Notes: a model not told the origin generated them from the letters alone. A stretch of DNA of 64,000 nucleotides from Oscillospiraceae bacterium (GCA_017538965.1 JAFYHU010000053.1:4210-68209), one strand, 5' to 3'. Positions 3,702 to 20,351 are shown, numbered from the stretch's first letter. Made by a program: numbers and translations.

Positions 3702-4223
3702 TTACAAGGCGAAGCTTCCGAAGTCTTCGACCATTTTATCCACGAGGGTGATCAGATTCGCCGTCGCCCTCGGCGCGAGATCGAAGACCGAATCCTGCGT
3801 CAGAAGCAGATGAGTTTCCGCGATGAGCGAGTTGTCGCTGACATCCAGAAAGAGCTTTACGCCGGTGGTGTTCGCGTGAAAGTCGTTGACAGCCGCCAGC
3901 AGTTCCGCGAGGTTCTCCGGATCATACTCCAGAAGATTGATCTGCAGAAGCGCCTCGGTGCCGTCTTCGCAGACAAAGGTCAGGAAACTGAACTCGTGAT
4001 CGGAGAGCTTGCCCGCATAAGAGATATTCACGGCTTCAAATTCTTTTCCGCCGATGCTGAGCGTCTCGAGCGCTTCGCAGCTTGCGCCTTCCAGTCTCCG
4101 TAGGGCATCCATATAGTCCTTTGTCGCTTCGAAACTGGCATCGCCGGCAAAGGCCGACACGCCGAGGCTGAACATCAGCACGAGGATCAGGGGAAACGCG
4201 AGAAGGCTTTTTTGAATTTTCAT
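3702..4223 (-). CDS. small secreted protein of unknown function, co-operonic with the upstream TIR gene
   Basis: The likely true start is MKIQKSLLAFPLILVLMFSLGVSAFA-GD (signal peptide). This is an internal Met of the 314-aa track ORF, whose N-terminal extension overlaps the TIR gene. The gap to the TIR gene stop is 28 nt. Confidence 0.6.
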   Translation of the reverse strand: MKIQKSLLAFPLILVLMFSLGVSAFAGDASFEATKDYMDALRRLEGASCEALETLSIGGKEFEAVNISYAGKLSDHEFSFLTFVCEDGTEALLQINLLEYDPENLAELLAAVNDFHANTTGVKLFLDVSDNSLIAETHLLLTQDSVFDLAPRATANLITLVDKMVEDFGSFAL

Positions 4224-4251
4224 GGCAGACCTGTCCTTTCCCAAATCAATT

Positions 4252-7200
4252 TTATGTTCTGCTGAGGATGTTTCCGTCTTTGTCGTATTCCACCGCGGCG
4301 AGCAGCCGGCCTTTGCGGTCATAATACCGCACGACGGTCCGGTTTCCGTATGGATCGTAGTCGGTTTCGCAGGACGCATAGCCGCCGTCGTTCGTAATCG
4401 GTTTCCCGTCCCTGCCGAAGTAGCTGGTCCGGATCTCGTTGCCGCGCTCGTCGTATTCCGATTCCAGACCGGCAAAGCCGCCGATGTGGAGACAGGGTTC
4501 TCCGTCGAGGCCGACGAAGCTGACCTTGATCTGGTTGCCGCGCTCATCGTACACCGCATCCCATCCGGCATAGCCGTCCCGGAACAGAACCGGCTGTCCG
4601 TCCGTGCCGAAGTAACGGCAGCGGATCTTCCGATCCCGCCCGTCATATTCAGATTCGCAGGAAGAAAAGCCGTCCGCGTTCAGAACCGCTTCTCCGTCCA
4701 GCCCAAAATAGCTGACTTTGCGTTCGTTGTCCCGCTCGTCGAAAACGGACTCGAAACAGCAGCCGCCGTAATCGTTCAGAACGGGCTTTCCGTCGGTGCC
4801 GAAGATGGTCGTTTTGATGATATTACGGTGCGCGTCATACTCCGACTCAAACCCGGCGTAGCCGTCTGCAGCCAGAACCGGTTTCCCGTCCGTGCCGAGA
4901 TAGGTGAAACGGATCTGGTTGCCGCGCCCGTCATACACCGCGTCCCATCCGGCATAGCCGTCCCGGCTCAGAATCGGCTGCCCGTCGGTCCCGAAATACC
5001 GGAGCCGGGTCTGATTGCCGCGCCCGTCATATTCGGCCTCCTGCCCGGCATAGCCCTCGGCATTCAGGATCGGCCGTCCGTCCGTATCGAAGAAGCGGGC
5101 TTTGATCTGGTTGCCGCGCCCGTCGTATTCAAAAGCCTCCGCGGCATAGCCCCCGGCGCTCAGAGCAGGCTGCCCGTCCGTGCCGAAGTAAGCGCGCCGG
5201 AGCTCATTGCCGTGGGCATCGAAGGCAGAGTCCCACCCGGCCACGCTGTCCCCGTACAGAACCGCTTCGCCGCTCAGGCCGAAGAAGCTGCGCCGGAGCT
5301 CGCTGCCGCGCTCGTCATAGGTCGATTTCCATCCGGCGATGCCGCTTTTATGCAGAACGGCTTCCCCGCCGGTTCCGAAGCAGCGGCATTCCGTCTCGTT
5401 GCCGCGCTCGTCATAGGCATATTCCCATCCGGCGACGCCGTCCGTGTTCAGGACCGGCTGGCCGTCTTTGCCAAAGAAGCCGAGACGGATCTGATTGCCG
5501 CGCTCGTCATACGCCGCGTCCCATCCGGCATAGCCGTACTGACACAGAGCAGGCTGCCCGTCCGTGCCGAAAAAGGCGACCCGGACCTCGTTGCCGCGCT
5601 CGTCGTACACCGCATCCCATCCGGCGATGTCGTCCCGGCTCAGAATCGCTTCTCCGTCCGCGCCGAAATAAGAGCAGCGGATCACGTTGCCGCGTTCGTC
5701 ATAGGCGTAGGTCCATCCGGCGTAGGCATCCTTCATCAGAACAGGCTGCCCGTCCGTGCCGAAGTAGCCGACTCTGACCGGATGACCCCTGTCGTCGAAA
5801 AGCGTTTCCCATCCGGCAATGCCGTCTTCGCTCAGAACCGGCTCGCCGTCCGTGCCGAAGTAAGAGCAGCGGATTTCGTTCCCGCTTTCGTCAAAGACGG
5901 ACTCGTACCCGGCGACGCAGATATCGTGCAGAACCGGATTTCCGTCGGGATCGAAGAAACTGCGCCGGATTTCCCTGCCGTTTTCATCAACCTGAGACTC
6001 CCATCCGGAAATGCCGTCCCGGTGAAAGACCGGCTCTCCGTCCGTCCCGAGGAAGCCGACACGGACCTGATTCCCCCGTGCGTCATAGCGGTTTTCCTGC
6101 GCGGCAAAGCCGAGCTCGGTCAGGAAGGGGCTGCCCTGCGTGTCATAATAGCTTGTTCGGACTTCGTTGTGGTTTTCATATTCAGAAGCCGTGACAGCGC
6201 CGGAGGAGGCGAGGGTGATCAGCTCTCCCTGCGCGTCCAGCATGCGCTGCCCGACGCAGTCGCCGGCGTCGTCATAGAGAAATTCGATGCCGGCCAGGCC
6301 GCTGCGCTTTCCGACCACCCGATAGTTTTCCGCCCTGGTGGCATCCGTGCTGCCGGACGCGACATAGGTGAGATAGAGCAGGCGGATGATGCGGCCCTGT
6401 CCGTCCCGTTCAAAGCGAATCCCGCTGATGCCGTCCGCGTCGTGGGCGGAATGGTTGTAGGCATCGGATGCATAGTGCACTTCAAGCGGAAATCCCGAAG
6501 CGTCATAGGTTACCAGATAGCGGATCACGCTGCTCTTGCGATCCTTTTCCCCGCTGTCGTCTTCCAGCGGATCGACGGTGATGTGCGAAGGCAGAGGCGC
6601 CGCCATCGAGAAGCCCCCGCTTTCCGTCTCCGGATGCCTGGAAAGATCGACGGTGTTCCGGCTGATATAGTGCAGTTCCGTTGCCAGCTGTCCGTTTTCG
6701 TTGTACTGATTGACGCTGGACAGACCGCCGTCGTCCGCATAAACGTACTCCGCCCTGGAAAAGCGGTCGATCCGTGTCGGGTGCGTATCCGGCATGAGCT
6801 TGCCCGCGCTGTTCTCATAACGCAGTTCGCGGACCCTGCCGCGGCTGGACAGCAGGGTGTAGTGCGCGTTCATGGACGGAAGCTCGTTTTCCTTCAGTTC
6901 TCCGATACCCTTCGGAACCCCGTAGACCTCGGTGTAATCCGCATAATACTTCGTTTTCGGCGTATAGTAATCCCAGGCTTTCCACGCGCCCGCCATCACG
7001 ACCAGGGCGAGAAGCGCGGCGGCAAGGCGGTTCTTTCTCCGGCGCCGCAGGTCGTCGCTCTCCAGTTCCTCCCGCCTGATGCCCAGCATGGCGGCGATGA
7101 GGCGCAGCAGAGCGGTGCGCGGCCCGTCGTCGTAGATGCTGACGCCGGCGATGTCCTTCTCTCTGCTCAGCTGCGCCAGATAAGCAGGAAAGCACTCCTC

Positions 7201-7596
7201 CACCGGGTGATCGCTCTTGTCCACGATGAAGGGAATGACGCGGCCGAGATCACCGCTGCCCTCCAGAAAGTACCGCAGTTCGTCGTCCAGGTACCGGGAG
7301 TTCTCCGCGGCTTTCCGGGAGCAGATGACGATCAGGTATCTGGCCGACTGCACTTCGCTGGAAAGGCCGCTGTCCAGCAGCCCCGGGGTCAGATTGGTTT
7401 TGTCCAGAAAGATCGGGCTGCAGCGTTTCTGAACCTGCGGATTCTTTCTGTGGGTTCTCGCGGGCAGGCGGTAATTATGGAGATGCCGCTTGAGCCAGCG
7501 GGCCCATTTTTCGTCCGCACTCTTGTAGCTGATAAAGGCAAAATAGGTATAGTTGTCTGAAGAAGCAGCTGCAGGGGAAACGGGTTCCGAATTCAT
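4252..7596 (-). CDS. TIR domain - single TM helix - about 20 tandem YD/RHS-like repeats (receptor-like membrane protein)
   Basis: The N-terminus YFAFISYKSADEKWARWLKRHL...IFLDKTNLTPG...YLIVICSRKAAENSRYLDDELRYF fits the TIR_2 pattern. RRRRKNR is followed by LAAALLALVVMAGAWKAW (TM helix). Then come ~32-aa repeats with consensus GYAGWDAVYDERGNQIR..YFGTDGQPVL, encoded at about 4255-6190. A GGAGG RBS lies upstream of the ATG at 7596. Confidence 0.8.
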   Translation of the reverse strand: MNSEPVSPAAASSDNYTYFAFISYKSADEKWARWLKRHLHNYRLPARTHRKNPQVQKRCSPIFLDKTNLTPGLLDSGLSSEVQSARYLIVICSRKAAENSRYLDDELRYFLEGSGDLGRVIPFIVDKSDHPVEECFPAYLAQLSREKDIAGVSIYDDGPRTALLRLIAAMLGIRREELESDDLRRRRKNRLAAALLALVVMAGAWKAWDYYTPKTKYYADYTEVYGVPKGIGELKENELPSMNAHYTLLSSRGRVRELRYENSAGKLMPDTHPTRIDRFSRAEYVYADDGGLSSVNQYNENGQLATELHYISRNTVDLSRHPETESGGFSMAAPLPSHITVDPLEDDSGEKDRKSSVIRYLVTYDASGFPLEVHYASDAYNHSAHDADGISGIRFERDGQGRIIRLLYLTYVASGSTDATRAENYRVVGKRSGLAGIEFLYDDAGDCVGQRMLDAQGELITLASSGAVTASEYENHNEVRTSYYDTQGSPFLTELGFAAQENRYDARGNQVRVGFLGTDGEPVFHRDGISGWESQVDENGREIRRSFFDPDGNPVLHDICVAGYESVFDESGNEIRCSYFGTDGEPVLSEDGIAGWETLFDDRGHPVRVGYFGTDGQPVLMKDAYAGWTYAYDERGNVIRCSYFGADGEAILSRDDIAGWDAVYDERGNEVRVAFFGTDGQPALCQYGYAGWDAAYDERGNQIRLGFFGKDGQPVLNTDGVAGWEYAYDERGNETECRCFGTGGEAVLHKSGIAGWKSTYDERGSELRRSFFGLSGEAVLYGDSVAGWDSAFDAHGNELRRAYFGTDGQPALSAGGYAAEAFEYDGRGNQIKARFFDTDGRPILNAEGYAGQEAEYDGRGNQTRLRYFGTDGQPILSRDGYAGWDAVYDGRGNQIRFTYLGTDGKPVLAADGYAGFESEYDAHRNIIKTTIFGTDGKPVLNDYGGCCFESVFDERDNERKVSYFGLDGEAVLNADGFSSCESEYDGRDRKIRCRYFGTDGQPVLFRDGYAGWDAVYDERGNQIKVSFVGLDGEPCLHIGGFAGLESEYDERGNEIRTSYFGRDGKPITNDGGYASCETDYDPYGNRTVVRYYDRKGRLLAAVEYDKDGNILSRT

Positions 7597-7801
7597 GACT
7601 GTGCCTCCGCTTGCATTGGGATGGCTTCAATATACCACAAAATCCGCCCGGATGGTAGAGCCAAAGCGTCAAAAGCTGTCATTCCTGAGCCAAAAACCGC
7701 GAAAAGACTTGACGGAAGGGCAGAGAAAGGGGTAAAATAACAAGAAGTAGTAGTGTTGTAAATCCATCTGTGCAACATATAGAAATAAGAGGAAAAGAGA
7801 A

Positions 7802-10800
7802 ATGAAAAAAATCCGGAAACTTCTGGCGCTGACCCTGGTTTTTTGCATGATGACAGCCCTGGGCGTATGGAATACCAGCGCGCAGGCGGACTGGTACACC
7901 GTGACCTTCAATCAGGTGGATAACCGAAAATTTGAAGGCGTGCCGACAGGGGTCACCCCGACGGCTGCGGCGGCGTCCCAGAAGACGGTAATCGGCTCGT
8001 CCTCGAACCTCACGAACGTGGGTCAGATCGAGTATTATTACAATGCCGGAGCGGAAACCCTGATCATCAGCGGCTGGGGTGAAATGCCCGGCTTCGACAA
8101 GGAGCATCCGGCGCCCTGGTTCAGGGAAGCCCGGTGGGCGAAGCGCGTCATCATCGATGAAAGAGTGCTGACCATCTCGAACGAGGCCTTCAAGGACTTT
8201 GAATATCTCCGGAGCGTGGTCTTCCCCTCCACGCTGAAGAAGATCGCAGCGAACTCCTTTGAAAACTGCGAGAAGCTCAAGCGCATCGAAGTCGTCATCA
8301 ACGTGGACGACGCGAAGACCCTGGTCAGGGAGAGCGAAAGCAAGGAGCTGGAGAAGGCCGAGATCGTGCGCGTCACGAGGGACGCCGTCCTGAAGGAGAT
8401 TGAATGGCTGACGACCTACTGGGTGGGAGACTGGGAAGAGATCACCTATGACAAGGCCGGGCGGCCCATCCGCATCATCGAGCATCTGGCGGACGGCAGA
8501 ACCATAGACACGAGAATCAAATATCTGAACCCGGCAACGGCGGCCAACCAGGCGAAGAACGCGAACACCGCCGAGCGGTACTATTCCGTGAAAACCACCA
8601 AGTCAGGCGACAAGACCGCAGCGGAATTGGAGAAGACCGAGTACGGGCAAAACCTGGTCAAAGGCGGATACGAGCTGAACAAGGACGGCCGCCAGGTAAA
8701 GGGCGTTGAAATCACGCAGAACGGGACCGACTCCAACAAGAGAGTCCTGTACAAAGCCAAATACAATGCTGACGGCAGCGGCACCAAGGAATGGGTAGAG
8801 ACGGAACTGGAGAAAGGCACGTTGAACGCAATCACCGAATATACGACGGAAACGGTGGACAAAAACGATAAAGTGAAATCTGCCGAAACCTTGTATCTTG
8901 ACGCGAACGGCGTTCTGCGCGGCTATGCCAAGACGGAAAACGATTATAATAAAGACGGCAATAAGACAAAGACAGACTATTATCAAGTCGATGAAGCCGG
9001 CGCCAAAACAGCCGAAGGGTCAACTTCTTACGATTATGACCCTGCAACGAAACGGCTGACCGGAAAGACCGACACATACACGGAATACCCGGCACAGAAT
9101 AAAAGCAAGAAAACGGAGACTACCAGTGAGTATGGGTATGACAGTAAAGGAAACGTTTCCACGGTGAAAGAGACCGTCACCAATACGGAGAAAAACGGAA
9201 GTACGACGACTACAAAGACAACAGAGACCACAACGAGCTACCAGTATACCGACAAGGGATTAAAGAAAGCATCGACGGAAAAAGTAACATATGTAGAGAG
9301 CGGCAATACGAAAGAAACCACAACCACGTATGATAAAAACGAGCGCCCGGTAAAAGAAGAATCTACAACGAAAAACAGTGCCGGAGACATCCTCCAAACC
9401 GTAACCAATGAGATCAGCTATAATTCCGACCACGTCATATCCAAGAGCGTAAAGACCATAGAAGATGCAAGCGGCACGCATACAGTAACCACGAATTACG
9501 ATAAGGACGGCTGGCCTGTCAAAGAGACGACAGAGGAAAAAGATGAAGACGGGAATCCAACAGGAAGCATTACGAACAGCTATACCTATAACGAAGACGG
9601 AATGCTTACGTCGTCCACACAGGTAGTAAAAGACGATCAGGGGAATACCAAAAAAACCATTAAGGAAGAGACAAAATATGATTCGCTGGGTAGAGTCCTG
9701 AAGTACACGCAGACTACAACCGAAGGCGATAAAACCAAGAGCACAAGCACCACCAAGAGCTATGATTCAGACGGAAGAATTATCACAGAAGATTATGAGA
9801 CCCTTGAGAACGAAACGAAAACCGGAAGCAAAGCGACATATACGTATAACAAAGACGGCAGCTATACCAAAAAAATAACAGATCTCGAAGAAACTGCAAC
9901 CCAGACCAGCGAATACGATGACACAGGAAGAATTACAAAAGAAACTCTTGTAGAGAAAGATGCTGACGGAAATAAAACCGGGACTGAAACGACGTATACC
10001 TATGATGAAGACGGCACCCCTCACACAGAAACAAGAAATCTCACTGAGGAAGAGCTGTCCAACCTGAAAAGTGCTCCAAAAATGATGTTGATGAGCTTCC
10101 GGGCGGCTTCTGACGAAGCCTGTGAGGGAATTTGTGAAGAAACCTGTGAAGAGACCTGTGAAGAGACCTGCGAGAAGCCTGACTATGAGCTGACAGGCAC
10201 AGAAGAAGCGACCTGCGAAGAGCCGGCCTATGAGATCTACAGATGCAAGGGATGCGGCTATGAGTTTAAAAAAGAAGTCGGTGAGCCTCTCGGCCATGAC
10301 TATGAGCTGAAGGAGACCATAGCGGCAACCGAAACGGATCCTGCTTATGAGATTTATATCTGCAAACGCTGCAAGGACGAGATCAGCAAACCCGTAACGG
10401 AAGAGGACAACGAGGACGCTGCCGAGCAGAAAGACCAGGTTTCAGCAGACAGCGGGAAGAAGGAAGATACACCGGCAGATACCGGGAAGAAGGCCGGCGA
10501 GACTCCGACCGGCACTGAGACGAAGGACGCACAGGCCACAGACATCGACAAGACGGATCTGCCGGCAGCGGACACCGGCAAGACAGATGTACCGGCTGCA
10601 GACATCGGCAAGACGGATCTGCCGGCTGCAGACATCGGCAATAAGGCTGCACCGGTGGCAGACCCCGCCAAGACGGATATACCGGCGGCAGACCCCGCCA
10701 AGACGGATGTACCGGCTGCGGACACCGGCAACAAGGCTGCACCGGCGGCAGATACCGGCAATAAGGCCGCACCGGCTGATCCGAAGCCGGCGAACCAGAT

Positions 10801-10903
10801 CCCGGTCGTACCGACTCCTCAAAATACAACTCCAGTGCCGTCCGTTGCTCCGGTGCAAACTGCTTCCGAAAACTCGGTTCCGGAAAACACTGAAGAAGGC
10901 TGA
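7802..10903 (+). CDS. large secreted surface protein: BspA-type LRR, YD-like repeats, Thr/Lys-rich repeats, Cys-rich modules, decapeptide tandem repeats
   Basis: Signal peptide MKKIRKLLALTLVFCMMTALGVWNTSAQA. LRR_5-like segment VIIDERVLTISNEAFKDFEYLRSVVFPSTLKKIAANSFENCEKLKRIEV. YD-like units such as TYDKAGRPIRIIEHLADGRTI and YDKDGWPVKE. Cys-rich modules ATCEEPAYEIYRCKGCGYEFKKEVGEPLGHDYEL. C-terminal KTDLPAADTG repeats. Confidence 0.8.
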   Translation: MKKIRKLLALTLVFCMMTALGVWNTSAQADWYTVTFNQVDNRKFEGVPTGVTPTAAAASQKTVIGSSSNLTNVGQIEYYYNAGAETLIISGWGEMPGFDKEHPAPWFREARWAKRVIIDERVLTISNEAFKDFEYLRSVVFPSTLKKIAANSFENCEKLKRIEVVINVDDAKTLVRESESKELEKAEIVRVTRDAVLKEIEWLTTYWVGDWEEITYDKAGRPIRIIEHLADGRTIDTRIKYLNPATAANQAKNANTAERYYSVKTTKSGDKTAAELEKTEYGQNLVKGGYELNKDGRQVKGVEITQNGTDSNKRVLYKAKYNADGSGTKEWVETELEKGTLNAITEYTTETVDKNDKVKSAETLYLDANGVLRGYAKTENDYNKDGNKTKTDYYQVDEAGAKTAEGSTSYDYDPATKRLTGKTDTYTEYPAQNKSKKTETTSEYGYDSKGNVSTVKETVTNTEKNGSTTTTKTTETTTSYQYTDKGLKKASTEKVTYVESGNTKETTTTYDKNERPVKEESTTKNSAGDILQTVTNEISYNSDHVISKSVKTIEDASGTHTVTTNYDKDGWPVKETTEEKDEDGNPTGSITNSYTYNEDGMLTSSTQVVKDDQGNTKKTIKEETKYDSLGRVLKYTQTTTEGDKTKSTSTTKSYDSDGRIITEDYETLENETKTGSKATYTYNKDGSYTKKITDLEETATQTSEYDDTGRITKETLVEKDADGNKTGTETTYTYDEDGTPHTETRNLTEEELSNLKSAPKMMLMSFRAASDEACEGICEETCEETCEETCEKPDYELTGTEEATCEEPAYEIYRCKGCGYEFKKEVGEPLGHDYELKETIAATETDPAYEIYICKRCKDEISKPVTEEDNEDAAEQKDQVSADSGKKEDTPADTGKKAGETPTGTETKDAQATDIDKTDLPAADTGKTDVPAADIGKTDLPAADIGNKAAPVADPAKTDIPAADPAKTDVPAADTGNKAAPAADTGNKAAPADPKPANQIPVVPTPQNTTPVPSVAPVQTASENSVPENTEEG
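10541..10777 (+). repeat. about eight tandem 30-nt coding repeats (D-x-G-K-T-D-x-P-A-A decapeptide)
   Basis: Units such as gacatcggcaagacggatctgccggctgca recur head to tail with a 30-nt period inside the 7802-10903 CDS. Confidence 0.85.
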
Positions 10904-16960: not shown

Positions 16961-17076
16961 GACAGTTGTGTTTGTTTTTTGATTGTGTTTTTGACATTTT
17001 CTTCGTTTTTCTCATTGATTATTTGACAGGAATGGCATATACTAAGGGCAAACCGGGAAAATGGAGGCTGCTTTCC

Positions 17077-18426
17077 ATGGAATTGACCCGCAAATGCGAG
17101 GAACAGATCCGCGACTGGCTTCGGCAGGATCATCAAAAAGCGCTGCTTGTGGATGGGGCTCGTCAGGTCGGAAAGACACATACCATCCGCCGCGTCCTGT
17201 CATCCGAAAACCAGGATTATGTTGAATTCAATCTTTTGCAATTGCCTGAACTGGTCCCACTCCTTCAGCAGGCCAGGACAGTTGATGAGCTGGTGCTTGG
17301 TTTTTCGGTTTTTACTTCCCATGCTTTTATAAAAAAACAGACGATTATCTTCATTGACGAAGTTCAGTGTGATAAAGAAATGGTTTCGAGGATTAAATTC
17401 CTGGTTGACGATGGCAGCTATCGGTTTATCTTAAGCGGTTCCTTGCTTGGCATCGAAATCACAAACCTTCTCTCCGCTCCTGTCGGATACCTGCGTATCC
17501 TCAAAATGTATCCTCTGGACTTTGAGGAATTCCTGCAGACTGCGTCTGTCTCTGCGGATCTGATCGAGTATCTTCACAACTGCTTTCTCCGGCGCGAGAC
17601 GGTTATGGCATCTGTCCATGACAAGCTGATGAACCTGTATCGGCAATATCTTGCCATCGGGGGGATGCCGGAAGCGGTTTCATACTATGCAGATCATTAT
17701 AATCTGAACGGCATTCTTCAGATTCACCGGGATATCACGGCGCTGTACAAGCTGGACTTCACCCAGTATGAAGCAGAGAATAAACGCCTTATTCTAAGCA
17801 ACATTTATGACAGCATTCCTTCACAGCTGTTGAAGCAGAACCGCCGCTTTATGCTCAGCGATCTGAAAAAGGGTCTGCATTATGAACGGGTGGAAAGCTC
17901 TTTCCTCTGGCTGAAAGCCGCTGGGGTTACGTTGACTGCTTACAATGCAACGGAACCCCGTCTCCCTCTGAAATTAAATGAAAAGAGCAGTCTTTTCAAG
18001 CTGTATCTTGCAGATGTAGGGATGCTTACTTCTTCCTATGGGATGAGCACAAAACGGCAGCTTCTTACAAAAGACAGCCGCTTCAACGCCGGAGGTATTT
18101 ATGAAAATGCCGTTGCGCAGGAGCTGTCTGCCAAAGGGTTTCGCCTGTACTATTATAATTCCACGCGAATCGGAGAGCTTGATTTTGTCGTGGAATATGG
18201 AGGAAACGTCCTTCCCATCGAGGTCAAAAGCGGAAAGGACTATACGATCCATTCGGCACTGTCTTCTGTGATGCGGAATGAACAGTATCAAATAGAGGAA
18301 GCTTTTGTTTTCGCAGACTGTAATATCAGCTCCTCCGGCAGGATCATTTACTATCCGGTCTATATGACCATGTTCCTGGAAGCAGAAGAAAATGATCCCG
18401 GTCTTCTTCAAAAAATCGTCCTGTGA
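17077..18426 (+). CDS. AAA+ ATPase of the AAA_14/DUF4143 type
   Basis: Start trimmed to ATG 17077 (GGAGG 9 nt upstream). Walker A is DGARQVGKTH and Walker B is IIFIDEVQ. The C-terminal ELDFVVEYGGNVLPIEVKSG is a restriction-endonuclease-like DUF4143 signature. Composition is visibly lower in GC than the flanks. Confidence 0.8.
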   Translation: MELTRKCEEQIRDWLRQDHQKALLVDGARQVGKTHTIRRVLSSENQDYVEFNLLQLPELVPLLQQARTVDELVLGFSVFTSHAFIKKQTIIFIDEVQCDKEMVSRIKFLVDDGSYRFILSGSLLGIEITNLLSAPVGYLRILKMYPLDFEEFLQTASVSADLIEYLHNCFLRRETVMASVHDKLMNLYRQYLAIGGMPEAVSYYADHYNLNGILQIHRDITALYKLDFTQYEAENKRLILSNIYDSIPSQLLKQNRRFMLSDLKKGLHYERVESSFLWLKAAGVTLTAYNATEPRLPLKLNEKSSLFKLYLADVGMLTSSYGMSTKRQLLTKDSRFNAGGIYENAVAQELSAKGFRLYYYNSTRIGELDFVVEYGGNVLPIEVKSGKDYTIHSALSSVMRNEQYQIEEAFVFADCNISSSGRIIYYPVYMTMFLEAEENDPGLLQKIVL

Positions 18427-18446
18427 CATGAAGAGGTTTGTTTCCC

Positions 18447-20351
18447 ATGAAGATAAAAATATTTCTCGCATCATCCATAACGGAGTTTTCCAGGGAGAGA
18501 GAATCCCTGATGGCTTTTACGCAGGGATTGAACAACATCTTTCATGACAGAGACCTGTTTTTGGAGATGATAATCTGCGAAACCCTTTCTTCGCAGCTCC
18601 AGAACCGCAGAAGTCAGGAAGCATATAACGAGATTATCGAAGACAGTGAATACTTCTATGCCATTTTGGGAAATCGGGTCGGAGAATACACCGTTGAAGA
18701 ATTCGACACAGCTCTGGAATCCTATCGGGAAAAGGGAGCCCCGCGGATTTATGTGTATTTTCAGAAATCCGACGAACCGGAGAAACTTGATGACACGGTG
18801 CATCGGTTTGCAGAACGCCTGGAAAAGGATCTTCAGCACTATTATAATGTTTTTACCCATATCGATTCCGTCAAGCTGAATCTGCTGATCGAGCTGTGCA
18901 GGGATCCTCGGCTGGCAGCAAGTCTGGCGCTGGAAGATGGGGAAGCAAAGCTGAACGGAATTGCTTTGCTTTCGATGGCGAATATTCCTCTCTACGGCAA
19001 CAACGAGGTTATAAACAAACTGCGCAAAGAAAAAGAAGAACTGGAGATTGAGTTTTCCGATCTCATCGATCTGGGACAGAGTGAAAAGGTTCAGAGACTT
19101 ATCCGCAGCAATACGCTTCGACGGAACGAAATTGCCGATAAACTCCATGTTATAGAAAAAAGCATGCTTGATCTGTGTCAGGGGGTTGAAGAAAACAGGC
19201 GTCTCGGGAGACGACTGAATTGGCGCGAAAAGAAAGCAATGGAGTTTGTGGATGCCGGCGACTATGAGTCGGCAAAAGCGGTGTTGCGCGATGAACAATG
19301 GCATGATGAGGTTCTTCGGGCGGAAGACATCATAAAAAGCGCGAAAAATGTCATGGAGGAATATATCTGCGGAAAAAAGACCCTGATTCATACGATTATG
19401 GCTTCCGGACTGCGCTCAGAATCAGAGGAAGAGGTTATCGGTATTTACGAAGAAATCTGCCTGCTGGCGGCAGAAAACCAGATCTGTCTTGAGACGCTGT
19501 ATGAATACGCAGATTTTCTGCTTGAGCAAAACCGATTTTCGAGAGGAAGACAGATTGCGGAAAAATTGACTGCGCTTTATACCGCAGAAGACGCGGCGGC
19601 AGATAAGCTCGCGGATGCGTATTGGATGCTCGGAAGGCTTTATCACTGGGAAAACGATAGAAAGAAAGCAGAACATTCTTTCAGACAATCGCTGTCTTTG
19701 TATCGAGAGCTGGCGCAGCAGCATCCAAACACTTACGAAGACGGTCTTGCGAAAGCATGCAATAATCTGGCCAATCTGCTTGCAGATACAGAGCAGAAGG
19801 AAGAAGCGGAAACGCTATACAGAGAAGCTATGGACAACAGAAAAAATGCCGTTCAACACTACGGCGCTTCCCGCGAACCGGCTATGGCAAGAAGCTGCTA
19901 CAATTTGGCGGTCTATTTGGCGGAGCAAGGCGCGTATGAAGAATCGGAACAGCTGCATCTGGAGGCGATGAAGATACGCAGCAGAATTGCCGAAAGCGAC
20001 TCCATGACCGACAAAGCGGAACTGGCAAGGTCATACTACGGCCTGGGAGAATTATATATCAAAATGGAGAAGCTCGAAATCGCAGAAGAATACCATATGA
20101 AAGCCTATGAGATTCGCAGCCTGATTCTTGAAAGCAATCCTTCTGCCATAGAGCCTGATTTTGCGAGGTCCTGCTATTCTATCGGGAATATTTTCCTCCA
20201 GGAAGGAAGATATGATGCGGCAGAGCAATATTTGCAGAAGGCAGCGGACATCCGGAAGCAGCTGGCAGATGAGAATCCAAAAGCATTCAGCACAGAATTG
20301 GAGGCCTCTGTCCGTGCTTTAAAGAAGTGCGAGGAACAGAAACGAGCTTGA
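18447..20351 (+). CDS. DUF4062/TIR-like N-terminal domain - coiled coil - TPR (TPR_10/12-type) protein
   Basis: Start trimmed to ATG 18447 (aagagg RBS). The N-terminus KIFLASSITEFSRERESL...EDSEYFYAILGNRVGEYTVEEFDTALESYREKGAPRIYVYF fits my memory of the DUF4062 consensus (FISSTF.DL..ER......CD.fi.iiG.RYG..TE.Ey..A...gk..l.F). The C-terminal ~280 aa are KLC-like TPRs (LARSYYGLGELYIKMEKLEIAEEYHMKAYEIR). It starts 20 nt after the ATPase gene. Confidence 0.75.
   Translation: MKIKIFLASSITEFSRERESLMAFTQGLNNIFHDRDLFLEMIICETLSSQLQNRRSQEAYNEIIEDSEYFYAILGNRVGEYTVEEFDTALESYREKGAPRIYVYFQKSDEPEKLDDTVHRFAERLEKDLQHYYNVFTHIDSVKLNLLIELCRDPRLAASLALEDGEAKLNGIALLSMANIPLYGNNEVINKLRKEKEELEIEFSDLIDLGQSEKVQRLIRSNTLRRNEIADKLHVIEKSMLDLCQGVEENRRLGRRLNWREKKAMEFVDAGDYESAKAVLRDEQWHDEVLRAEDIIKSAKNVMEEYICGKKTLIHTIMASGLRSESEEEVIGIYEEICLLAAENQICLETLYEYADFLLEQNRFSRGRQIAEKLTALYTAEDAAADKLADAYWMLGRLYHWENDRKKAEHSFRQSLSLYRELAQQHPNTYEDGLAKACNNLANLLADTEQKEEAETLYREAMDNRKNAVQHYGASREPAMARSCYNLAVYLAEQGAYEESEQLHLEAMKIRSRIAESDSMTDKAELARSYYGLGELYIKMEKLEIAEEYHMKAYEIRSLILESNPSAIEPDFARSCYSIGNIFLQEGRYDAAEQYLQKAADIRKQLADENPKAFSTELEASVRALKKCEEQKRA

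Follow-up and report, generated by a model that had tools for sequence, protein, structure and literature searches.

A predicted type II membrane protein joining a cytoplasmic TIR domain to YD-like extracytoplasmic repeats in an Oscillospiraceae bacterium

A gene of an Oscillospiraceae bacterium, located on the minus strand of a 64,000-nucleotide stretch of its DNA (GCA_017538965.1, JAFYHU010000053.1:4210-68209; hereafter the window), encodes a protein of 1114 amino acids in which an N-terminal TIR domain is linked through a single predicted transmembrane (TM) helix to a long series of YD-like repeats. The best explanation of this architecture, which we hold with a probability of roughly 0.6, is a bitopic type II receptor that would couple sensing by the repeats on the envelope side of the membrane to NAD+ chemistry by the TIR domain in the cytoplasm. 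Induced proximity is the general rule of activation among TIR enzymes (SARM1, the plant TNLs, ThsB, TIR-STING, TIR-SAVED and SPARTA), and most of the characterised bacterial TIR systems (Thoeris, TIR-STING, TIR-SAVED, SPARTA and TIR-Avs) sense events in the cytoplasm. If the receptor reading is true, a large TIR-TM-repeat family would add outside-in envelope sensing to TIR biology, and would provide a testable case of convergence with animal Toll-like receptors (TLRs) and with teneurin topology. The literature searched yielded no account of a receptor family with a TIR-TM-YD or TIR-TM-WD40 layout; one may exist beyond it.

Here, we describe the domain assignments, structural models and gene contexts that bear on this reading. 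What they show directly is the order of the domains, the sequence signals of topology, conserved catalytic-site and BB-loop residues, the exchange of TIR for kinase, the divergence pattern of paralogues and the gene neighborhoods. From them we infer outside-in sensing, enzymatic (NADase) activity, activation by clustering, a ligand and a biological role in defence. The coordinates of all features are collected in Table 1.

The TIR domain and its putative catalytic glutamate

A preliminary description of the gene, made from the window's sequence, had reported a 1114-residue minus-strand open reading frame (ORF) with a good GGAGG ribosome-binding site and an N-terminal TIR domain. Both points hold: the GGAGG lies 7 nt before the ATG, and the Pfam model TIR_2 (PF13676) matches residues 21-131 with an E value of 3.5e-9 and 37.6 bits, above its cut-off of 28. 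The full-length AlphaFold2 (AF2) model, built on an alignment of 90 homologues, has a mean predicted local distance difference test score (pLDDT) of 89.7 and a predicted template-modelling score (pTM) of 0.70. Over residues 18-171 the pLDDT is ~90, and the fold is of the flavodoxin-like alpha/beta type with a parallel sheet. Foldseek matches this part to the TIRs of TLR1, TLR2 and SARM1 with TM-scores, normalised to target length, of 0.6-0.74 (0.70-0.74 for SARM1). When the TIR part and the ectodomain were searched as single sequences with phmmer against the Protein Data Bank (PDB), nothing meaningful was returned, and the TIR matches came with a family profile only. This profile, an alignment of 34 N-terminal modules, matched in the PDB the L6 TIR (E 1.2e-5), TLR2, ROQ1, SARM1, TcpB, AbTIR and ThsB.

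The preliminary description had further proposed that a Glu sits at the catalytic position of NAD-cleaving TIRs, and the alignments agree. Glu106, the Glu of a family 'D/N-x-E' motif, is invariant across the alignment of 90 full-length relatives. It pairs with the Glu of 'CLMEL' in the L6 alignment and, in an hhalign profile comparison with the SARM1 TIR (95.6% probability, the SARM1 sequence having been entered by hand), with the catalytic Glu of that enzyme. In the same comparison 'SRYLDDEL' lies opposite 'KDWVHKEI', which pairs Tyr102 with Trp; the BB loop aligns 'PIFLDKTNLTPG' with 'SVFIDVEKLEAG', and F63, D65 and G72 pair with SARM1 'FIDVEKLEAG'. Both the Y/W at position -4 from Glu106 and the BB-loop F-x-D...G are invariant or nearly so across phyla. 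As judged from these alignments, the domain carries the residues of enzyme-type (NADase or cyclase) TIRs, and its activity is a predicted one.

The window TIR shares its fold, catalytic Glu, W/Y-x3-E motif and BB-loop F-x-D...G with the TIRs of SARM1, Thoeris ThsB and the AbTir-TcpB type. It differs from them in being anchored to the membrane by a C-terminal TM segment and fused to extracytoplasmic repeats, and in having no SAM or ARM domains. Thoeris needs a ThsB-type TIR beside ThsA (SIR2-SLOG or Macro-TM); the window has no ThsA, and the protein is not a member of that system. The earlier statement that no ThsA-like partner lies nearby is borne out by scans of the neighbouring genes: PADLOC, run on seven neighbouring proteins to a distance of ~20 kb, gave no match except a PDC-S01 candidate, and Pfam detected no SIR2, SLOG or Macro domain and no ThsA-like partner among the neighbours.

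Membrane topology and the repeat ectodomain

The N-terminus of the protein is hydrophilic, without a signal peptide, and residues 191-209, which directly follow the Arg cluster RRRRKNR, are the sole hydrophobic segment of the 1114-residue chain. These are the features from which an N-in/C-out orientation had first been proposed, and they recur throughout the family. Among 121 aligned sequences, all but a few have one hydrophobic peak at approximately residues 180-220, directly after the TIR domain; the exceptions carry another N-terminal module or are truncated. The 15 residues preceding the TM segment contain 3-9 Lys or Arg, and the 15 residues following it contain 0-4. In the AlphaFold model, one continuous helix (175-211) joins the TIR domain to the first beta-hairpin. 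Three relatives (P0084, P0085 and P0106) have a Hanks-type Ser/Thr kinase in place of the TIR domain (residues 9-263, 61-309 and 73-336, respectively), followed by a TM helix and the same repeat module, and the P0084 gene adjoins a gene encoding an FHA-domain protein. Since a kinase requires ATP and a TIR enzyme requires NAD+, both modules are expected in the cytoplasm, which places the repeat domain outside it. By sequence criteria, the predicted topology of a bitopic type II protein, N-in/C-out, holds.

The likeness to a TLR that had been pointed out in the preliminary description is correct insofar as the repeats lie outside and the TIR domain inside, and insofar as TLRs and IL-1R are likewise single-pass proteins; the window TIR also aligns to the TIRs of TLR1 and TLR2. 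The orientation of the chain is, however, type II, as in teneurins. TLRs are type I proteins with a signal peptide, an N-terminal leucine-rich repeat (LRR) ectodomain and a C-terminal TIR domain, and ectodomains of the TLR and IL-1R group are of LRR or Ig type, whereas the window protein has an N-terminal TIR domain, YD hairpins and enzyme-type residues, and there is no evidence of adaptor TIRs for it. The resemblance is one of convergent topology and not of whole-protein homology. Metazoan teneurins, in turn, keep their N-terminal domain inside the cell, which makes them type II TM proteins as well, and teneurins have YD-type hairpins in common with the window protein. PknD-type receptor Ser/Thr kinases have a comparable extracytoplasmic repeat sensor, and the three kinase-type relatives are identical in layout to the window protein save for the output, the TIR domain replacing the kinase here.

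The ectodomain comprises ~900 residues of beta-hairpin repeats, with paired beta-strands predicted throughout after residue 212. Degenerate hairpins (212-494) precede the phased units, which had been counted earlier as ~20 tandem units of ~32 residues; 18-19 strictly phased units are present at 495-1082, each following the motif G-[YF]-A-G-W-x3-YDxxGN-x-[IV]-R-x3-[YF]-G-x-DG-x-P-[VA]-L. At the DNA level the period is 96 nt and the identity between repeats is 61-79%, which makes collapse or mis-assembly of the array unlikely. The best-conserved part of the ectodomain in the 90-sequence alignment is the juxtamembrane region, WDYxxxKTxYYxDYxExxGVPxGI with an invariant G230, and such conservation would suit an element that couples helix and ectodomain.

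The repeats had been called YD-like, and the profile and structural comparisons support that label in part. Searched against the PDB with Foldseek, the ectodomain matches Rhs cores of the type VI secretion system (T6SS; 8qja, E 2.6e-30), Tse15, Tse5, RhsP, teneurins and the Tc toxin TcB-TcC. The Pfam model RHS_repeat reaches 15.3 bits in the window protein, below its threshold of 22, and scores above that threshold in the kinase-type relatives, which share the repeat module. The name YD-like is based on the similarity in fold to the shells of Rhs, Tc and teneurin proteins and on the supra-threshold scores in these relatives. In the model the hairpin unit is of the YD/Rhs type, an assignment that covers the unit and not the global shape, be it a closed shell or an open spiral. 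DUF2963 is a marginal Pfam match in the same protein.

The structural matches raise the possibility of an Rhs-type polymorphic toxin, or a relic of one without cargo, whose YD shell would encapsulate or deliver a toxin, perhaps the TIR domain itself. The best Foldseek matches are indeed T6SS Rhs cores and TcB/TcC, and NAD-consuming toxins are known in polymorphic toxin systems. The window protein, however, differs from teneurins and from Rhs and Tc proteins in lacking an FN-plug, an NHL domain, an Rhs core, an autoproteolysis motif and a C-terminal toxin, and in the unusual regularity of its repeats, which keep an exact 32-residue register. Inspection of the sequence and the Pfam and NCBIfam scans revealed no Rhs-associated core, DPxGL autoprotease, C-terminal toxin, PAAR, VgrG or secretion module in it, and the protein ends in repeats. 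Export is impossible for the TIR domain, which is N-terminal and ahead of the TM helix; there is no sign of an immunity gene, and global similarity to closed shells is low. We therefore regard a toxin of this kind as very improbable.

The TIR-TM-repeat family and its RyR-domain neighbors

A word-indexed search retrieved 138 relatives, mostly of the same architecture, whose sole annotation is 'TIR domain-containing protein', and 365 relatives are present in GTDB, sampled at one genome per species. Their hosts include Clostridia (Lachnospiraceae, Oscillospiraceae, Ruminococcus, Blautia), Planctomycetota, Verrucomicrobiota (Akkermansia), Bacteroidota, Lentisphaerota, Desulfovibrionaceae, Treponema, Coriobacteriia and Hydrogenedentota. 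Among them are many diderm bacteria, in which the repeat domain would be periplasmic; the description of the repeats as extracellular is right in placing them outside the cytoplasmic membrane and too specific for the diderm relatives. The family is abundant in gut and rumen Clostridia, Akkermansia, Bacteroidota and Planctomycetota, and may shape phage-host or cell-cell interactions in the microbiome.

The N-terminal module extends well beyond the YD-type proteins. An exhaustive search of representative 50%-identity clusters with a 185-position profile of this module gave 20,042 matching clusters at E<=1e-3 and 5,073 at E<=1e-30. Among 55 sampled top matches, all of which match Pfam ThsB_TIR, a single TM peak at 180-206 is found in 53, and a WD40 beta-propeller follows the TM segment in 40. 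The preliminary remark that bacterial TIR proteins are soluble is therefore incomplete, TM-anchored ones being not rare. The window protein has the 185-residue TIR module, a TM segment at ~180-220 with a K/R-rich N-terminal flank, and a C-terminal repeat domain, and by these sequence features the YD type forms a single branch within a very large family of 'TIR-TM-variable repeat' proteins.

The conservation of the TIR-TM-repeat fusion across phyla shows that it is genuine, as had been supposed. An assembly or annotation artefact could be suspected since one public assembly calls the gene as two products of 740 and 330 amino acids. This split is due to a single G-to-T change at codon 741; over 100 independent homologues have the fusion, as do 76 loci spread over many phyla, and the repeats are just 61-79% identical as DNA, leaving an artefact with a negligible chance. 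The other assembly is represented by a stretch of 8,223 bp in ERZ28019117 (L080), in which this base is the only one that differs from the window; its 740-residue product is P0001. Because Gly741 occupies the conserved repeat position 'F-G-x-D-G', the window carries the intact ancestral state, and the TGA allele may be either a natural loss-of-function mutation or a sequencing error.

Several genomes contain multiple copies of the gene, and tandem arrays of two to three paralogues are common. The TIR domains of every paralogue pair are closer to each other than the ectodomains are (97/77, 93/68, 81/39 and 91/56% identity, for example), and the number of repeats varies between paralogues. The closest relatives of the window protein are 81% identical in the TIR domain and 54-56% in the ectodomain. 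On sequence comparison, the faster divergence of the ectodomain and the exchange of TIR for kinase fit the logic of a variable sensor attached to an output module.

This pattern bears on the direction of signaling, which the sequence does not itself fix. The TIR domain might sense phage replication, a shift in NAD+ level or some other event inside the cell, with the ectodomain acting as an effector that remodels or masks the cell surface, as might be expected from the characterised bacterial TIR systems, most of which sense infection in the cytoplasm. Such inside-out signaling appears unlikely: the ectodomain has no enzymatic or pore-forming module and evolves rapidly with variable copy number, as recognition domains do, the TIR domain has no additional cytoplasmic sensor domain, and the kinase-swapped relatives resemble classical outside-in receptor kinases.

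Clustering of the ORFs from 79 related loci revealed no universal partner gene. In 20 of 80 loci, however, multi-TM proteins with an RCK/KTN-like domain and a C-terminal RyR domain are encoded. Of the 23 RyR-domain genes, 19 are no more than 2 kb away from the family gene, and overlap with it on the same strand is frequent; given a uniform spread over 10 kb, the binomial probability of at least 15 of 23 lying within 2 kb is 3e-6. The RyR profile (PF02026-type) matches the bacterial RyR domain 3nrt (E 1.2e-7) and an RyR1 repeat chimera (E 4e-15). The gene immediately upstream of the family gene encodes a K+ channel with an RyR domain and the filter TVGYGD in three loci (L018, L042 and L050). 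Loci with RyR-domain neighbors come from Clostridia, Coriobacteriia, Lentisphaerota, Treponema and Bacteroidota.

A 2026 preprint reports that phage RyR-domain proteins (RyDEP) bind or hydrolyse the TIR products 2'cADPR and 3'cADPR, where cADPR is cyclic ADP-ribose, and that phage proteins, a B. thetaiotaomicron RyR-like protein and animal RyR Repeat12 have the RyR fold in common (PMC13232231). Taken together with the adjacency described above, this binding makes the neighboring RyR proteins plausible readers of a TIR-made signal in the related loci, and the linkage supports a signal-generating role for the family TIR. The phage RyDEP is a viral anti-defence enzyme (PMC13232231), in contrast to the family-linked RyR domains, which are cellular, fused to TM, RCK or K+-channel modules, and candidate effectors or readers.

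In the proposed mechanism, the repeat domain would bind a ligand on the envelope side; candidates are components of phages, polymers of a foreign cell surface or cell wall, and signals of damage. Receptors in the membrane would cluster or reorient on binding, and the conserved juxtamembrane hairpin, together with the continuous helix 175-211, would relay this change to the TIR domains, which would multimerise, create active sites, and cleave or cyclise NAD+. For the window copy, which has no partner gene, the output might be NAD+ depletion or growth arrest; alternatively, some protein whose gene lies elsewhere might read a signal made by the TIR domain. Where an RyR-domain membrane or K+-channel protein is encoded next door, as in about one quarter of related loci, it would be the likely reader of a cADPR-type product. 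A more elaborate form of this scheme, in which an envelope ligand acts through the TIR domain and a cADPR-type nucleotide to gate, in many lineages, an adjacent RyR-domain K+ channel or RCK protein, with the window copy standing alone or acting in trans, is one that we put forward only tentatively. If true, it would constitute a prokaryotic counterpart of both the TLR layout and the cADPR-to-RyR axis. The RyR linkage, which belongs to the related loci and not to the window, and the 2026 cADPR finding make it directly testable whether RyR-type domains read ADP-ribose-derived messengers, an idea long debated.

Other genes recur beside family members. In eight loci (L067, L072, L073, L077, L024, L031, L070 and L021) all or most parts of a cassette encoding an M48 peptidase with a zinc ribbon, an 89-residue protein and a 170-residue zinc-ribbon protein adjoin the family gene, and the first four of these loci also contain a LuxR-type response regulator and a histidine kinase; the cassette might regulate or process the TIR receptor. 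Proteins with an N-terminal 'GITGHR...SSLAEGAD' domain and C-terminal TM helices are encoded beside family genes at L019:5951-7744, L058:12872-14605 and L063:15146-16609; the resemblance to SLOG/YpsA that we noted by eye was not confirmed by Pfam or by a profile search of the PDB. In a metagenome-assembled genome of Hydrogenedentota, a convergent gene directly after the family member (L005:14030-15076) encodes a soluble 348-residue TIR_2 protein that might be a second TIR partner.

Evaluation of the receptor reading and the locus in the window

The TIR-TM-repeat layout could also belong to a structural or adhesive envelope protein, in which the YD repeats are the functional part (in adhesion, carbohydrate or cell-wall binding, or aggregation) and the TIR domain is a non-catalytic anchor or oligomerisation scaffold. 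The YD-repeat ectodomains of teneurins act in adhesion, TLR-type TIRs bearing the same Glu are scaffolds, the divergently transcribed neighbor (7802..10903) encodes a secreted surface protein with LRR and YD-like repeats, and the locus is no defence island. The near-invariance across phyla of Glu106, of the Y/W at -4 and of the BB-loop F-x-D...G is nonetheless hard to explain for a passive anchor, relatives join the same ectodomain to a kinase, and the linkage to RyR-domain proteins points to nucleotide signaling. On balance we find a purely adhesive role doubtful and prefer a receptor with a catalytic TIR domain.

Several observations weigh against this receptor reading. TLR2, which is non-enzymatic, also has a Glu at the catalytic position, so that Glu106 is necessary and not sufficient evidence for catalysis. 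The TM segment is short, and its Kyte-Doolittle maximum over 19 residues, 1.5, is borderline, lying under the classical value of 1.6. The global TM-scores of the ectodomain to Rhs shells are 0.14-0.34, with a root-mean-square deviation of ~20 Å. A PADLOC scan of the 1114-residue protein gave no match, and the family has no model in PADLOC. The window contains no RyR, SLOG, SIR2 or Macro partner, and the neighborhood consists mostly of sugar-transport and amylase genes, with no defence island. Finally, at least one population can do without the full ectodomain, as the codon 741 nonsense allele shows unless it is a sequencing error.

A sigma-70-like candidate site, recognized by consensus match, lies ~140 nt upstream of the TIR gene. 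The gene downstream, which encodes a YbjN-like protein, is probably co-transcribed with it; no homologue of the YbjN-like gene was found next to other family members. The product of the divergent neighbor has a signal peptide, YD-like repeats with weak similarity to the family ectodomains (E 4e-8), a Cys-rich CExxC segment and a long Pro/Ala/Thr-rich tail. The flanking genes encode an alpha-amylase, an acyltransferase, sugar ABC permeases and a MacB/HlyD-type exporter.

Table 1. Positions of the features of the TIR gene, its neighbors and RyR-encoding regions of related loci (positions in the window unless prefixed by a locus)
Feature	Position	Strand	Basis
Whole ORF: TIR domain, TM helix and YD-like repeat ectodomain, 1114 aa, ATG start	4252..7596	minus	translation, Pfam, AF2
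Ribosome-binding site GGAGG, 7 nt upstream of ATG	7604..7608	minus	
Sigma-70-like promoter candidate TTTACA-17-TATTTT, TG extended, in divergent intergenic region	7734..7762	minus	consensus match only
TIR domain, predicted cytoplasmic, residues 18-171, alpha/beta fold	7084..7545	minus	Pfam TIR_2, family profile, AF2, Foldseek
Glu106 codon, putative catalytic Glu; Y102-x3-E106 as counterpart of W-x3-E motif	7279..7281	minus	90-sequence alignment; L6 and SARM1 alignments
Arg/Lys cluster RRRRKNR, residues 184-190, predicted cytoplasmic side of TM helix	7027..7047	minus	hydropathy, family flank counts
Single predicted TM segment, residues 191-209, part of long predicted helix 175-211	6970..7026	minus	hydropathy, family alignment, AF2
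Membrane-proximal, predicted extracytoplasmic region, 212-494: conserved juxtamembrane motif WDYxxxKTxYYxDYxExxGVPxGI, then irregular YD-like hairpins	6115..6963	minus	alignment, AF2
Array of 18-19 repeats in strict 32-aa register (residues 495-1082), with two beta-strands per repeat	4351..6114	minus	repeat register, 96-nt DNA period, AF2, Foldseek
Three C-terminal 12-aa YD half-units; protein end, no Rhs core or toxin	4255..4350	minus	
Codon 741: GGA (Gly) in window, TGA (stop) in other assembly	5374..5376	minus	
Downstream gene: secreted 173-aa YbjN-like protein, 29 nt past TIR stop, no terminator between	3702..4223	minus	
Divergent neighbor: secreted 1033-aa BspA-type LRR and YD-like surface protein	7802..10903	plus	
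AAA_14/DUF4143 ATPase, PADLOC candidate PDC-S01 (E 5e-174), ~9.4 kb from TIR gene	16966..18426	plus	
DUF4062 and TPR protein, after PDC-S01 candidate	18438..20351	plus	
RyR regions of related loci	L016:17384-20803, L018:6567-9993, L042:6491-9881, L050:6436-9880, L067:323-2275		
RyR regions of related loci, continued	L072:7230-9224, L073:211-2223, L062:15211-17547, L028:7931-9922, L059:6793-9864		

An NCBIfam scan of the 1114-residue protein gave no match. On the opposite strand, an ORF of 1112 amino acids (4222..7560, plus), in exact codon register with the TIR gene and without a Pfam match, was dismissed as a codon-bias shadow, because the TIR gene has no TTA or CTA codons and only one TCA, and a GC content at third codon positions of 0.75. 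Farther from the TIR gene, at ~9-11 kb, the PDC-S01 candidate and the adjoining DUF4062/TPR gene may form a small defence-like pair.

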